A stretch of 64,000 bases of DNA from an uncultured Halocynthiibacter sp. (lineage in GTDB: Bacteria > Pseudomonadota > Alphaproteobacteria > Rhodobacterales > Rhodobacteraceae), in contig CANNCD010000005.1 in the NCBI GenBank assembly GCA_947503035.1, forward strand, positions 50,208 through 114,207, in the 5' to 3' direction. The stretch's first letter is position 1. The number at the start of each line of letters is the position of its first letter. The translations under genes and the position numbers were made by a program. Below the pieces are notes generated by a model. It was not told the DNA's origin, searched no databases, and saw only the letters and a list, made by a program, of their open reading frames with translations. This document shows positions 33,545 through 40,113 of this stretch, piece by piece.

Positions 33545-34027
33545 ATGCCAAAGGTAACAACACCAGCCCATAAAGACGGTGATTTCTTTGTGGACTACGA
33601 AGAGAAAGTATTCGAAGACGTACAGGCCGAAGAAGGCCAGAAAGCACTTGTGACCTTCCACTCTGTTGCCTTTGAGGGCTCTATTGGATTGGTGAATATC
33701 CTTCAGGCCATCCGCCTACAGCGCAAAGGTTTTGAGACGTCTGTGCTGCTTTATGGCCCAGGTGTGTCTTTGGGTGTTCAACGTGGTTTCCCGACATTGG
33801 GCGACGAAGCCTTTCCGGGCGCGCAGAACTATTCGGCCAACTTGAAAAAGTTCATGAAAGAGGGCGGCAAAGTCTATGCCTGCCGTTTTGCCCTGCAAAT
33901 GCTTATGGGCCACGGCGAGCCATCCTTGCTTCCTGGCATCGTGCCAATCGCACCGCAAGATGTGCTTGATCTCAAGTTGCTACACATCCGCGACGATGCG
34001 GTGATCGTGGACACCTGGACTGTCTAA
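33545..34027 (+). CDS. nitB: MSMEG_0572/Sll0783 family nitrogen-starvation-response protein (Nit1C cluster NitB-like)
   Basis: 160 aa, with RBS AGGAG upstream. The family is recognised from memory by sequence and by its position directly before the nitrilase. Confidence 0.75.
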
Positions 34028-34139
34028 CACCGGAAGCTTTGGGGCGGCAACGGCGTCGCCCCAAGGCTCCGACCTTCAAATTTGAATTCATCTGATCATG
34101 GCGCGGTTTTCCCCGCCGATCACCCACAAAGGATGGCCT

Positions 34140-35126
34140 ATGTTAGACCACACCGTCAGAGTTGCCGCCGTTCAGATTGCCCCCGATCTGGCAAGCCGTG
34201 AAGGCACCATTGAGCGCGTCTTGAACGCGATCGCAGAGGCCGCTGATAAAGGGGCCGAATTGATCGTGTTCCCTGAAACCTTTGTGCCCTACTACCCCTA
34301 TTTTTCGTTTGTATTGCCCCCTGTCCAACAGGGCCCCGAACACCTGCGCCTCTATGAAGAGGCCGTGGTTGTCCCCTCGCCCGCGACACAGGCCGTGGCG
34401 GCTGCCGCGCGCAAACGCGGTGTCGTCGTTGTCTTGGGCGTCAACGAACGCGACAACGGTTCATTGTTCAACACCCAGCTGATTTTTGACGCAGACGGGA
34501 CACTCGCCTTAAAGCGCCGCAAAATCACCCCCACCTATCATGAACGGATGATCTGGGGCCAAGGCGACGGTGCCGGCCTTAAGGTCGTGGACACCAAGGT
34601 TGGCCGCATTGGGGCCTTGGCCTGTTGGGAACACTACAACCCGCTCGCGCGCTACGCCTTGATGGCACAGCACGAAGAGATCCACGTCGGTCATTTCCCA
34701 GGAAGCCTGGTGGGGCCGATTTTCGCCGAACAGATCGAAGTGACAATGCGCCACCATGCCTTGGAGTCGGGCGCCTTTGTCGTGAACGCAACAGGGTGGC
34801 TGACACAAGAACAGATCGACAGCATATCGGATGATCCCAAACTTCAAAAGGGGCTTCAGGGCGGATGCATGACCTGCATCATTTCCCCAGAAGGGCGCCA
34901 CGTTGTTCCCCCGCTGACCGAAGGCGAAGGCATTTTGATCGCCGATCTCGACATGCGGTTAGTCACCAAACGCAAACGCATGATGGACAGCGTGGGCCAC
35001 TATGCCCGCCCCGAGCTGTTGCACCTTGTGCACGATGCACGAAGCGCCCAGCCCGCGCATCGCATTGAAAATCCCCAAGACCTAATGACCACCCCAGACG
35101 TGGAGGCAGAAGATGTCAGAAGCTGA
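34140..35126 (+). CDS. nitC: nitrilase (Nit6803/Sll0784-type, Nit1C cluster)
   Basis: Glu-Lys-Cys triad contexts [16 protein letters not shown] and IGALACWEH. Start ATG 34140 follows AAAGGA. The ORF-track start at 34098 is less likely. Confidence 0.9.
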
Positions 35127-36213
35127 ATTGATCAATGAATTGCAGACCCATGGAATGCGGCTGGTTGACCCGACCGCGGGCATGGAAAGCCGTCGTGGCG
35201 GGGCGGGTCCAACGGATCACAAGGCCGTCACGATTGGCGACACCACGGTCATGGTCCCTGTCCACACCGCTCCGGCCTTTGACAGCCCCTACTGGGTGCA
35301 AGCGCCCGACGAAGACGGGTTCGCGCAAGTCAGCAAACAAGGCCAGCCGTTGGCCAAAATTCGGTTCCCGAACCGCCCCAAATTCTATGACCTGAAAACC
35401 GCAGATGGGGTGGAATACAGCAAAATCGCGACGCTGCACTCAAAGGACGTTCTGGCCACGACGGTTTTGCAAACCTGCATTCGGTATGAAAGCCGCAAGA
35501 AAACCTGCCAGTTCTGCTCTATCGGCCAGTCCCTCGCCGCGGGTCGCACGATTGCCCATAAAACGCCCCAACAGCTCGCCGAAGTTGCCAAGGCCGCTGT
35601 GGAATTGGATGGCGTGAAACACATGGTTATGACCACAGGCACCCCCGCCGGAAAAGATCGCGGCGCATCGGTGATGGTCGACAGCGCCCTTGCGATCAAG
35701 GCCGCGGTTGATTTGCCAATCCAAGGCCAATGCGAACCACCCGAAGACAACATCTGGCACGAGCGCATGTTTGAAGCGGGCATCGATGCGCTTGGCATGC
35801 ACCTTGAAGCCGTGACCCCAGAAGTGCGCGCACGCGTGATGCCCGGCAAGGCGCAAGTCAGCTTAGAGAAGTACTTTGACAGCTTCAAATCCGCGGTCCA
35901 AGTGTTCGGTCGCGGCCAAGTCTCGACCTATATTTTGGCCGGCCTCGGGGATACGCCCGAAGCGATCCTTGAGACCTCGCAAGAGCTTTGCAATATCGGG
36001 GTTTACCCCTTTGTGGTGCCATTCGTTCCTGTTTCGGGCACCCCAATGGAAAGCCACCCCGCGCCCGATGCAGATTTCATGGCACGTATCCTTAAGCCTT
36101 TGTCGGGCATGATTTTACGGGCAGGCATGAGCGCGGAAAGCGTAAAAGCAGGCTGTGCCAAATGTGGCGCGTGCTCGGCCCTTTCTGTCTACGAAAAATT
36201 GAGGGCGTCATGA
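35113..36213 (+). CDS. nitD: MSMEG_0568-type radical SAM protein
   Basis: 366 aa. Cys cluster [18 protein letters not shown] plus a C-terminal [16 protein letters not shown]. 14-nt overlap with the nitrilase gene. Confidence 0.8.
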
Positions 36214-38012: not shown

Positions 38013-38023
38013 GGAATACATCC

Positions 38024-39280
38024 ATGAACCATCGCGAATATAAATCTATCGTCGTTGTCGGCGGTGGTCAGGCCGGCCTGTCGGTAAGTTACTATCTAAC
38101 ACAGGAAAACATCGACCATGTTATCTTGGAACGTCGGAAGAAATTCCATTCGTGGCGGGTCAATCGGTGGGATACTTTTTGTCTGGTCACGCCCAATTGG
38201 CAATGCCGTTTACCTGATTTCCCTTATGCAGGAAATGACCCTGATGGGTTTATGGTAAAGGACGAGATTGCGAATTATCTGGATGCCTTTGCACAGACGT
38301 TCAATCCGCCAATTGTTGAAGATTGCGAAGTGACACGGATCACAAAACGGCCCGAAGGCGGATACCTTGTTGACACGTCCATGGGTAACTATTCGACCGA
38401 CCAAGTCGTGATTGCCACCGGTGGTTATGACAACCCGATTGTCCCGCCCTATGCGGCCGACCTCGATCCCTCGATCATGCAAATGCATTCGGTAGACTAC
38501 CGCCGCCCAAGCCAAATGCCCGAGGGCGCAACCCTTGTGGTTGGCACGGGGCAATCGGGGGTTCAGCTGATGGAGGATTTGCACCTCGCTGGCCGCGACG
38601 TTCATCTCGCTGTGGGCCCTGCACCACGCTCGCCTCGGATGTACCGAGGACGAGACGCGACCGATTGGATGTATGATTTGGGCCACTACGACATCACAAT
38701 CGATAAACACCCAAACCCTGAACACGCGGTATCGAAGACCAATCACTATATGACTGGACGTGACGGCGGACACGAAATTGATCTGCGCAAATTTGCCCGC
38801 GATGGAGTGTCTTTATATGGCTCGGTCAGCGGCATGGACGACAAAAGTATTCAATTTCTGCCAGACTTGGAAAAGAACCTGGATGACGCGGATGAAAGCT
38901 ATCTTGGCATTTGTACGGCCATTGACGGCTACATTGAGAGGAACAATATCGATGCCCCTGTAGAGCCGGAATTTGAAAAGGTTTGGCGTCCAGAACAAGA
39001 GATCACTCACATTGATTGCGAGGCCCTCGGCATCACTTCAATCCTTTGGGCGATCGGGTTTCGCCCGAACTATGGGTGGATCGACGTCGATGTCTTCGAC
39101 GATCTGGGGCGTCCTGTTTACAGGCGCGGCGTGTGTGAAGAAGACGGGTTCTATTTCATCGGTCTGGGATGGTTGAACACATGGGGATCCGGCCGATTTT
39201 TGGGGATTAATGAAGACTCCAGATACTTGGTTGACGTGATTTCAGCACGACAAAAAAGCAAGATGCGCGAAGCATCATGA
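38024..39280 (+). CDS. nitH: MSMEG_0569-type flavin-dependent (class B FMO-like, two-dinucleotide-fold) oxidoreductase
   Basis: FAD fold VVVGGGQAGLS and a second fold LVVGTGQSGVQL. Start ATG 38024 follows AAGGAA. Confidence 0.85.
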   Translation: MNHREYKSIVVVGGGQAGLSVSYYLTQENIDHVILERRKKFHSWRVNRWDTFCLVTPNWQCRLPDFPYAGNDPDGFMVKDEIANYLDAFAQTFNPPIVEDCEVTRITKRPEGGYLVDTSMGNYSTDQVVIATGGYDNPIVPPYAADLDPSIMQMHSVDYRRPSQMPEGATLVVGTGQSGVQLMEDLHLAGRDVHLAVGPAPRSPRMYRGRDATDWMYDLGHYDITIDKHPNPEHAVSKTNHYMTGRDGGHEIDLRKFARDGVSLYGSVSGMDDKSIQFLPDLEKNLDDADESYLGICTAIDGYIERNNIDAPVEPEFEKVWRPEQEITHIDCEALGITSILWAIGFRPNYGWIDVDVFDDLGRPVYRRGVCEEDGFYFIGLGWLNTWGSGRFLGINEDSRYLVDVISARQKSKMREAS

Positions 39281-40113
39281 TTGCACAGCCCACAAGCGCG
39301 CAAAAACACATCAGCCACCATGCAACCCATACTCTAGGCATGGCGCAGCTAGGGTTGCGTGGACTGGCGGAAGAATGGTGGCTGCGCCATCTTGGCGATG
39401 TGCATTGGCAATTGATTGCCGCTTCCCTCGGTCAAACCACAACTGTGTTCAAAGATGCCTCTGGGCGGCAAGTCTATGCGGCCTTTTGTGCGACCGAGTT
39501 TGCCCAACTCAATCCTGATCACATCGGTTTGGGAGATGTCTTAGAAGTGAATTCCATACTGTGGGCGGCCGGCAGAAGCCGCCTTCAATCCAACCATGTC
39601 CTTATGGTCGGCAATGTCATTGTTGCGCGCTTTCGGTTGATTTCCACATTTGTGTGCCACGAGAAAGATGGCCTTAATTCGAGCATCTGTCGCACAATGC
39701 CCTACTTGGTTCCGGTGCTTGATCCTGCGCCGGATGCATTTGCCGCGCAAACAAGCCAAACGGCCCGTGCCTGCCGCGCCCAAGACAAAACATGGGAGAA
39801 GAACGTCCTGATACACCCCTGTGTGGGGACTGATTTCAACGCTGTGGGGCTGCTCTATTTCCCAAGCTTTACGCGTTTTTTCGATCAAGTTGAACGCTGC
39901 CTCGAAAACTCCAAAGAATGGGCCCCCGTGCGGTGCCGGCGTGTGCACTATTTTGGCAACATTGAACGTGGTGAAGATGTGATCGGGGCGCGGACATCGT
40001 CTGGCAAACCCGTTGGTTTGGAACTGTGGCACTCAGCAGGACACGCAAAACCCACGAAAAAACTGGCCCATAGTGCGCTTCAGCGGTTTCCAATCCGATC
40101 AAAGCCAGCCTAG
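39277..40113 (+). CDS. Pnap_2097 / LnmK-N-terminal-like (double hot-dog fold) putative biosynthetic protein
   Basis: 278 aa with an ATGA overlap to the monooxygenase gene. The N-terminal pattern GMAQLGLRGLAEEWWLRHLGDVHWQLIA recalls the Pnap_2097/LnmK_N family. The assignment is from memory. Confidence 0.5.
   Translation: MIAQPTSAQKHISHHATHTLGMAQLGLRGLAEEWWLRHLGDVHWQLIAASLGQTTTVFKDASGRQVYAAFCATEFAQLNPDHIGLGDVLEVNSILWAAGRSRLQSNHVLMVGNVIVARFRLISTFVCHEKDGLNSSICRTMPYLVPVLDPAPDAFAAQTSQTARACRAQDKTWEKNVLIHPCVGTDFNAVGLLYFPSFTRFFDQVERCLENSKEWAPVRCRRVHYFGNIERGEDVIGARTSSGKPVGLELWHSAGHAKPTKKLAHSALQRFPIRSKPA

Follow-up and report, generated by a model that had tools for sequence, protein, structure and literature searches.

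The stretch of 64,000 nucleotides analyzed here (hereafter, the window) belongs to contig CANNCD010000005.1 of an uncultured Halocynthiibacter sp. (assembly GCA_947503035.1), and it carries an intact, self-contained module of nine genes: a divergent regulator of the MocR type, the seven genes nitBCDEFGH, and a terminal gene of the Pnap_2097 family. The module is the Nit1C pathway in its alpha/beta-proteobacterial form, and the catalytic motifs are kept in all of its enzymes. The original prediction, made from the letters alone, had described eight plus-strand genes between positions 33545 and 40113 and had matched the first seven to a Nit1C cluster. These genes are indeed found there, but the unit is not limited to this range, because its ninth member, the regulator gene (31915-33279, minus strand), falls outside it. 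The cluster, its eighth gene and the class of its regulator are already present in public annotation, and no fewer than 72 further genomes share the layout. As a member of a known family, this copy is ordinary and has nothing unique in itself. The family is a conserved cluster of ocean picocyanobacteria, soil and plant bacteria, and mycobacteria, and it has stayed unsolved for twenty years.

All eight products were scanned against the profile hidden Markov models of NCBIfam with their curated cut-offs, with Pfam as a second library. Every family named in the original prediction was recovered above its cut-off (8/8). On the plus strand, nitB (33545-34027) encodes a protein of the MSMEG_0572/Sll0783 family (TIGR04044, 270.8 bits, cut-off 109.85). 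It is followed by nitC (34098-35126), a Nit6803-family nitrilase (TIGR04048, 560.4 bits, cut-off 502.6), nitD (35113-36213), an MSMEG_0568-family radical S-adenosylmethionine (SAM) enzyme (TIGR04043, 586.7 bits, cut-off 303.7), and nitE (36210-36761), a GNAT acyltransferase (TIGR04045, 220.6 bits, cut-off 68.45). Next come nitF (36758-37741), an ATP-dependent AIR-synthase-like (AIRS) protein of the sll0787 family in the PurM superfamily (TIGR04049, 438.2 bits, cut-off 321.3), nitG (37734-38012), a 92-aa protein of the MSMEG_0570 family (TIGR04042, 119.6 bits, cut-off 79.85), and nitH (38024-39280), an MSMEG_0569-family flavin monooxygenase/oxidoreductase with two dinucleotide folds (TIGR04046, 616.6 bits, cut-off 498.35). 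The last gene (39277-40113) encodes the Pnap_2097-family protein (TIGR04099, 184.9 bits, cut-off 125). The E-values range from 2e-54 to 1.8e-185, with 4.6e-35 for the short NitG, and are so small for all eight products that a chance match is excluded. Pfam is consistent with these assignments wherever it has models. The first seven genes thus hold the seven Nit1C families of Podar et al. (2005), whose ORF1 has 160 aa and whose ORF6 has about 100 aa, all above their cut-offs and in the conserved order.

The open reading frame (ORF) list and a reading of the junctions confirmed the eight genes as co-directional and translationally coupled, with every overlap as originally described. More precisely, nitC and nitD overlap by 14 nt (35113/35126) and nitF and nitG by 8 nt (37734/37741), ATGA overlaps occur at 36210 (the start of nitE), 36758 and 39277, and an 11-nt gap separates the end of nitG at 38012 from the ATG of nitH at 38024, which is preceded by an AAGGAA ribosome-binding site. 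The genes lie on one strand with few or no intergenic bases, the exception being the spacer 3' of gene 1. This spacer spans 70 nt, or 112 nt when counted to the likely start of the nitrilase, and holds a hairpin.

The same arrangement is found across many genomes. We fetched 80 loci through a 20-sequence alignment of the eighth protein and searched them with the proteins of the window. In 73 of the 80, the set is complete, from the divergent regulator through the seven Nit1C genes to the Pnap_2097 gene, and its order and spacing are those of the window. Five others end at a contig edge, with the flavoprotein gene still directly upstream, and one is uninformative. The only lone copy of the Pnap_2097 gene (L020) occurs in a genome that holds a complete cluster too (L072). 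The hosts are Rhodobacterales, Hyphomicrobiales and one metagenome-assembled genome (MAG) of Verrucomicrobiaceae, and within the alphaproteobacterial set the nitrilase and the radical SAM enzyme are at least 73% identical. The module is found on plasmids, including one of Sagittula sp. P11 with a nine-gene layout identical to that of the window, and beside transposases. Culturable carriers of the nine-gene form are, besides Sagittula sp. P11, Epibacterium ulvae and Agrobacterium tumefaciens. An exact-sequence look-up with the eighth protein gave no match; a public protein of 100% identity, labelled as a Pnap_2097 family protein, comes from a Pacificibacter MAG, whose locus (L001) shares 99.7% identity with the window along 20.8 kb. 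Neither an all-against-all clustering of the flanking ORFs nor two Pfam censuses of the immediate neighbors revealed a conserved transporter or extra gene, the largest group of neighbors being LysR regulators (12/68 loci).

The hairpin directly 3' of the nitB stop (34031-34071, plus strand) was identified by folding and has a 13-bp GC stem at 34036-34067 (-33.6 kcal/mol, z = -3.56). In 67 of 73 loci, the 60 nt that follow the nitB stop reach a folding energy of at least -20 kcal/mol in strength, as do only 3 of 73 control windows taken inside the radical SAM gene. The sequence of the hairpin varies among loci while its structure and position recur, and a T-rich tail follows it in 21 of the 73. 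It is a candidate leaky terminator or mRNA-stabilizing element, and may set a high ratio of NitB to the enzymes. The proposal that the eight genes form one transcript is plausible, with the reservation that a spacer with a conserved hairpin parts gene 1 from gene 2 and that these two are not tightly coupled. In several roseobacter loci (L006, L007, L009, L011, L013-L018), the nitB-nitC spacer has two copies of the hairpin unit (GGGGCGGCAACGGCGTCGCCCC-like), which together resemble a small palindromic element of the repeated kind.

The product of the divergent gene has 454 aa, with a GntR domain (PF00392, residues 16-78) and an Aminotran_1_2 domain (PF00155, residues 159-445). This combination of a winged helix and a fold-type-I aminotransferase-like domain makes it a MocR/GabR-type regulator dependent on pyridoxal phosphate (PLP), and not a sigma-54-dependent NitA as in the Pseudomonas model. 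A longer ORF (31915-33399, minus strand) would add 40 N-terminal residues that resemble a transmembrane helix (MRIFGLYLFFWRFTGLLLALILIAYYAY...) and are not conserved elsewhere. Since these codons are unconserved and a GGAGAG site precedes Met41, the gene probably starts at Met41. In the alignment of orthologues, an invariant Lys lies in the motif GGLAKCiGAGLR, and it is a candidate for the PLP-binding lysine (K312 in GabR, K302 in EnuR). The best NCBIfam match, EhuR (NF052286), scores 401.7 bits, below the cut-off of 480, and we set aside an identity as the ectoine-utilization regulator EhuR/EnuR, the gene being linked to Nit1C and not to eut genes. It is best described as an EnuR/EhuR-like paralogue.

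The DNA between the regulator gene and nitB carries two candidate operators. The nested palindrome at 33434-33475, read as GCGTACAAT-ca-ATACAAT-tgc-ATTGTAT-gtat-AATTGTACGC, overlaps a perfect TATAAT box (33463-33468) and is the predicted site of both the nitB promoter and the MocR operator. Its half-site is that of EnuR/EutR, whose consensus is ATTGT-N6-ACAAT, and the sites of EnuR likewise overlap the promoter (PMC8739950). EnuR is a repressor, and its PLP reacts with the primary amine of inducers (PMC8739950). The second candidate, proximal to the regulator (ATTGTATGCATAGTATGCAATCAAT, 33313-33337), contains ATTGTATG at 33313, near the regulator start; most of the related loci displayed have a copy at the equivalent position, approximately -220 to -233 from nitB. 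Of the 77 intergenic regions between regulator and nitB, 73 have ATTGTATG or its complement, whereas the highest count of any 8-mer in 20 shuffled sets was 8. A third copy of this type is found at 31646 (minus strand), in the 558-bp gap downstream of the regulator gene, a position occupied by a DUF983/COG5349 gene in some other genomes. Scans for promoter and terminator consensus sequences showed no enrichment over shuffles, and folding did not indicate an unusually structured 5' leader. Scans of the whole window for Rfam families and tRNAs found nothing, and thus no riboswitch in the leader.

The MocR assignment agrees with independent work. In their supplement, Suvorova & Rodionov (2016) describe a MocR group, 'YrdX', with a predicted regulon made of PF02635, COG388, COG2516, COG3153, COG2144, COG2072, in some cases COG438, and a hypothetical protein; it spans Rhizobiales, Burkholderia and Comamonadaceae, including Pnap_2106 of Polaromonas naphthalenivorans. 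The regulator of the window shares this gene set and, given the matching regulon content, probably belongs to the same group. Many 'YrdX' clusters carry the MSMEG_0565 GT4 glycosyltransferase (COG438), in contrast to the window, which does not. Judging by the locus-tag numbers, Pnap_2097 would stand at the end of a Polaromonas Pnap_2097-Pnap_2106 cluster. The 2016 study assigned neither a function nor an effector to 'YrdX'.

The individual proteins give further hints about the chemistry. Unless another sample is named, invariant positions were read from alignments of each protein and its orthologues, taken from about 73 related loci. NitB is 77-84% identical across Proteobacteria and one cyanobacterium, and has an invariant Cys113. 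It was previously proposed to be YchN/DsrE-like (PMC1199592, PMC6039565), and is possibly so, with weak support: it matches the Pfam DsrE model (PF02635) with E = 0.0013 and 19.3 bits, under the cut-off of 22.7, a profile search of the PDB gave no more than a DsrE-like entry, 3mc3 (E = 1.3), and an hhalign comparison with YchN of Escherichia coli was not significant (probability 1.1%). An AlphaFold2 model built on a 24-sequence alignment had a predicted local distance difference test score (pLDDT) of 50, and was set aside and kept out of the fold search. Its poor quality is due to the excessive uniformity of the family (88% mean column identity).

The nitrilase had been given a start at 34098, but 34140 (Met15) is likelier, as an AAAGGA ribosome-binding site stands ahead of it and recurs in related loci. 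Its Glu-Lys-Cys triad is intact, as predicted: the protein passes TIGR04048 as a subfamily-1 (Nit6803-type) nitrilase, and the triad residues sit in the motifs FPE, RRKITPT..HER and ACWEH, which are invariant across loci. Numbered from 34098, the triad is E60/K142/C176 with a second Glu at E149, and from 34140 it becomes E46/K128/C162. The spacing is identical to that of the characterized nitrilase Nit11764 (E44/K126/C160, second Glu E133; PMC7815647).

NitD has invariant C122, C132 and C135, spaced as Cx9Cx2C (x8 in Rhodococcus) instead of the canonical CX3CX2C. As it passes both Pfam PF04055 and the NCBIfam model 'variant_rSAM' despite this odd motif, we count it in the radical SAM superfamily as a variant member. 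Four more cysteines (C207, C348, C351 and C354) are invariant too, and the invariance of the cysteines extends over nine sequences from three phyla. A single-sequence search of the PDB gave no match for NitD, and in a profile search its nearest solved relative was lipoyl synthase, at a weak E = 0.005.

NitE matches, in addition to Acetyltransf_1, the Pfam model FeeM of N-acyl amino acid synthases (32.9 bits, cut-off 27), and keeps an R-x-x-G-x-G/A-like acyl-CoA loop. NitF keeps the PGDD motif of the PurM superfamily, and its solved relatives are ThiL, PurL, HypE and SelD. Both GxGxxG motifs are present in NitH, whose closest solved structures are the small class B flavin monooxygenases 4usr, 4usq and 4a9w. 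The AlphaFold2 model of NitG is of high confidence (mean pLDDT 93.5), with four strands and two long helices, and a Foldseek search of the PDB with it found no solved fold relative (best E = 1, TM-score 0.40). A profile search of 1.84 billion representatives returned 381 relatives of NitG, nearly all of them stand-alone proteins of about 90-130 aa. A natural NitG-NitH fusion of 536 aa with a complete NitH (P0304), and fragments in the same order (P0330, P0406 and P0427), suggest that NitG is a probable partner of the NitH flavoprotein. Together with a natural GNAT-AIRS fusion in Rhodococcus, this defines two working pairs. Two further sequences (P0397 and P0445) resemble joins between the AIRS C-terminus and NitG, and may be gene-calling artefacts of the 8-nt overlap.

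The eighth protein had been called double-hot-dog-like, and correctly so: it exceeds the cut-off of the LnmK family model TIGR04098 (163.4 bits, cut-off 100) and matches LnmK structures with E = 1.4e-12 (4hzo) over both hot-dog halves. Its membership in TIGR04099 is given both by the score and by its position at the end of Nit1C. The gene is translationally coupled to nitH, and the flavoprotein gene lies directly upstream of it in 78 of the 79 informative loci. LnmK, from the leinamycin pathway (PDB 4HZN-4HZP, 6X7L), is a bifunctional methylmalonyl-CoA:acyl carrier protein (ACP) acyltransferase/decarboxylase, which converts methylmalonyl-CoA to a propionyl group through Tyr62, the acyl acceptor, with Phe65 stabilizing the enolate (PMC11350588). 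These residues align with Y67 and F70 of the eighth protein, which are invariant in 20 diverse sequences. We therefore predict an LnmK-like acyltransferase/decarboxylase, a homologous double hot dog that keeps both positions and is about 40 residues shorter than LnmK. The reaction typical of the LnmK family is the decarboxylation of (2R)-methylmalonyl-CoA to a propionyl-enzyme intermediate. Unlike LnmK, which depends on a dedicated ACP within a polyketide beta-alkylation cassette, it has no ACP, HMG-CoA synthase cassette or polyketide synthase (PKS) nearby: the module itself has none of them, and the neighbor censuses revealed none conserved beside it.

We sampled other forms of the cluster through homologues of NitB. 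The first parallel drawn in the original prediction, nitB-H of Pseudomonas, has the same seven families in the same order on one strand and a nitrilase of the same equivalog family (PMC7815647, PMC11049912); it differs in having a sigma-54-dependent Fis-family activator and no eighth gene, where the window has a MocR regulator and the Pnap_2097/LnmK-like gene. The other two parallels, the gpr operon MSMEG_0565-0572 of Mycobacterium smegmatis (PMC6039565) and the sll0783-sll0787 cluster of Synechocystis PCC 6803 (PMC3901256, cited in PMC7815647), are equally sound. They share the core families and are namesakes of the NCBIfam models, but are regulated by GlnR and NtcA, respectively, and are without Pnap_2097. 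Seven genes with a MocR regulator are found in Oceanospirillaceae, and with a sigma-54 regulator on an Acinetobacter plasmid. On plasmids of Tatumella and Klebsiella, MocR and the seven genes are joined by an AMP-binding gene that overlaps the stop of nitH, and Acetobacter has in addition the MSMEG_0565 glycosyltransferase. The Methylorubrum form also has the glycosyltransferase, and so does an Oculatella cyanobacterium, from which the flavoprotein is absent. Finally, the actinobacterial form, on a Rhodococcus plasmid, is unlike the window in its gene order, its fused GNAT-AIRS, its two C-N hydrolases and its glycosyltransferase.

The Klebsiella/Tatumella/Acetobacter form shares with the window the MocR regulator, the seven core genes and a gene for thioester chemistry after nitH. 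It differs in that this gene encodes an adenylate-forming CoA ligase, and in its operator repeats, which are of the TGATTGCA type. What the AMP-binding proteins most resemble are propionate-CoA and acetate-CoA ligases (PrpE/Acs-like), with scores far under the equivalog cut-offs. Since two unrelated thioester enzymes, LnmK-like and PrpE-like, alternate in the slot after nitH, a C2/C3 acyl-CoA step is suggested. Such a step would most simply feed the FeeM-like GNAT, or alternatively process the acid product of the nitrilase.

Homologues of NitB occur on 516 plasmid records, of which 374 are from Klebsiella and 30 from Escherichia, and many of these plasmids are 160-330 kb long. The one record that we inspected (L085, NZ_CP087658.1, 185012-203491) is an IncFIB/IncHI1B, non-mobilizable plasmid with MocR, the seven Nit1C genes and the AMP-binding gene. 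In size and replicon type, there is a resemblance to virulence plasmids of the pLVPK type. In Tatumella (L084, CP015581.1), the region immediately beyond the MocR gene (1845-8138) encodes a PALP enzyme, JAB, ThiS, a ThiF-rhodanese protein, an SrpI-like protein and a class V aminotransferase. This sulfur-carrier set is of interest for the sulfur hypothesis discussed below, and may be coincidental.

Previous experimental work has approached Nit1C from several directions. Podar et al. (2005) defined the cluster and found no function for it. In Pseudomonas pseudoalcaligenes, nitA, nitB and nitC mutants fail to grow on cyanide or aliphatic nitriles (PMC5939895), and a P. fluorescens strain with nitC deleted shows this phenotype too (PMC7815647). 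The purified Nit1C nitrilase takes cyanide as a poor substrate and prefers planar vinylic nitriles, with low efficiency even on the best of them, and its authors doubt a role in cyanide metabolism and suggest a biosynthetic metabolon (PMC7815647). In M. smegmatis, induction is GlnR-dependent and exceeds 500-fold, the mutant needs more nitrogen, and the cluster raises the NADPH/NADP ratio and gives resistance to peroxide (PMC6039565). The Synechocystis cluster is reported to be induced by nitrogen starvation (PMC3901256), and among marine picocyanobacteria, warm and nitrogen-poor water shows an enrichment of the cluster (PMC10119275). A genomic survey of 2024 still lists the remaining Nit1C genes as uncharacterized. 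The statement that the product and chemistry had yet to be settled holds, in that we found no paper defining a Nit1C product in the literature up to 2026, most subscription journals being outside this coverage.

Considering these elements together, we favor a pathway that would act inside the cell on a small amine-bearing metabolite and would serve nitrogen-stress metabolism. We give this whole package, regulation and chemistry included, a probability of roughly 55%, with most of the uncertainty coming from the order of the chemical steps. The regulator would bind the ATTGT-type repeats over the nitB promoter and its own leader, and a primary-amine metabolite would form an external aldimine with its PLP and change its state, by analogy with EnuR and GabR. 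The operon would thus be induced by a metabolite and not wired to a sigma-54 nitrogen regulator; the 2016 regulon reconstruction, which lists the same gene set under a MocR group, gives independent support to this type of control. Through the hairpin after nitB, NitB would come to exceed in amount the seven enzymes whose genes are translationally coupled. The Pnap_2097 protein may decarboxylate a malonyl-type CoA thioester (methylmalonyl-CoA, by analogy with LnmK) and hand on the resulting C2/C3 acyl group via Tyr67, and the FeeM-like GNAT would put this group on the amine. The AIR-synthase-like enzyme could then use ATP to activate the carbonyl of the new amide, redox steps would fall to the radical SAM enzyme and to the NitG-NitH flavoprotein pair, and the nitrilase would convert a conjugated nitrile intermediate to a carboxylate and ammonia.

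Several points weigh against this interpretation. The order of the steps is drawn from the chemistry of the families, and the PrpE-like and LnmK-like genes could act on the product of the nitrilase instead of supplying an acyl donor. LnmK requires an acyl carrier protein, and the module has none. The redox phenotypes of M. smegmatis and Synechocystis (NADPH level and peroxide resistance) are not explained by a simple release of ammonia. Moreover, the sign of the regulator (repression or activation) and its effector are predictions by analogy, and the organism is known only as a MAG.

The likeliest of the rival readings, though itself unlikely, is that Nit1C assimilates and detoxifies cyanide and nitriles: cyanide and a 2-oxo acid would react chemically to a cyanohydrin, and the nitrilase would release ammonia from this or from exogenous nitriles, the other genes having supporting roles. 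The growth defects of the nitA, nitB and nitC mutants of P. pseudoalcaligenes (PMC5939895) and of the nitC deletion in P. fluorescens (PMC7815647) are what this predicts, and the nitrilase of the window is of the same equivalog family. However, the poor activity on cyanide, the low catalytic efficiency and the doubts of the authors themselves (PMC7815647) fit badly with such a role, under which six or seven strictly conserved enzymes would also have nothing to do. Plain nitrogen starvation induces the cluster in organisms that are not exposed to cyanide (PMC6039565), and the regulator predicted here is of the amine/PLP-sensing MocR type and not a sigma-54 activator. We consider it far less probable still that the cluster makes a secreted specialized metabolite, such as an antibiotic, a siderophore or a signal. 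NCBI does label several members 'biosynthetic process', the LnmK family derives from polyketide pathways, and the module is patchy, plasmid-borne and mobile. Yet no exporter, carrier protein, nonribosomal peptide synthetase or PKS is conserved with it, master nitrogen regulators run the cluster in other phyla, and its very high conservation across phyla fits core-like chemistry better than a diversifying secondary metabolism.

An improbable alternative that lies between these two in our ranking is that the cell makes with it a new redox metabolite for internal use, such as a low-molecular-weight thiol or cofactor that contains sulfur. In this case, NitB would carry sulfur in the manner of DsrE, its insertion would be the work of the radical SAM enzyme, and NitH would act as a reductase. 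The GNAT would have a role like that of MshD, the ATP-dependent enzyme like MshC, the C-N hydrolase like MshB and, where a lineage has it, the GT4 glycosyltransferase like MshA. The weak DsrE signal of NitB, the earlier YchN/DsrE assignments (PMC1199592, PMC6039565) and the invariant Cys113 point in this direction. So do the lipoyl and biotin synthases that are the nearest relatives of NitD, together with its second invariant set of cysteines, and the weak match of NitH to the YpdA model of bacillithiol-disulfide reductases. The MSMEG_0565 glycosyltransferase of cyanobacterial, actinobacterial and Acetobacter forms matches MshA and BshA, and the raised NADPH/NADP ratio and peroxide resistance of M. 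smegmatis (PMC6039565) would be accounted for. But all these similarities are weak or generic, the profile comparison of NitB and YchN is not significant and the structure model of NitB is unreliable. Enzymes of the Nit6803 family are true nitrilases in vitro, the glycosyltransferase is absent from the form in the window and from many others, and the module is without a cysteine ligase or a sulfur-mobilizing enzyme.

A more ambitious reading, which we regard as a long shot, is that the module makes a new, widespread intracellular molecule beyond ammonia, namely, a sulfur-containing or cyclic-amidine redox metabolite built on an N-propionyl or N-acetyl amine. If true, NitB would serve in high abundance as a carrier or a sulfur relay, a C-S or C-C bond would be formed by the lipoyl-synthase-like radical SAM enzyme, and NitG-NitH would be a new two-component flavin oxygenase with a small-subunit fold unseen among solved structures. 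The same chemistry would then run in marine roseobacters, picocyanobacteria, mycobacteria and large Klebsiella plasmids.

The module offers practical entry points. The MocR regulator and its ATTGT-type operator are a handle for finding the inducer, expected to be a primary amine close to the true substrate. The alternation of LnmK-like and PrpE-like genes points to a C2/C3 acyl-CoA step before or after the GNAT, and the GNAT-AIRS and NitG-NitH fusions indicate the proteins that should be co-purified. Once solved, the chemistry would account for a nitrogen-stress trait with a wide marine distribution.

The DNA around the module in the window is of more local interest. A polar amino-acid ABC importer lies beside the regulator gene (28041-31356, minus strand), with two permeases of unusual length (360 and 382 aa) and a binding protein, and among the loci compared, such an importer stands next to the module in this genome only. 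Downstream of the module and convergent with it (40634-44594, minus strand) are genes for a flavin amine oxidase, for a cupin protein of the ChrR type and for a protein of 647 aa, the latter with a pyridoxamine-phosphate-oxidase-like domain and a ferredoxin-reductase-type NAD-binding domain. As neither the importer nor this trio is conserved with the module elsewhere, we regard them as local context. Finally, the AT-skew of the window peaks at about 0.2 in 4001-6000, 28001-30000, 48001-50000 and 56001-58000. At least two of these peaks coincide with minus-strand genes for membrane proteins (the ABC permeases and a TRAP-type permease at 48506-49807), and the peaks are probably an effect of codon composition.

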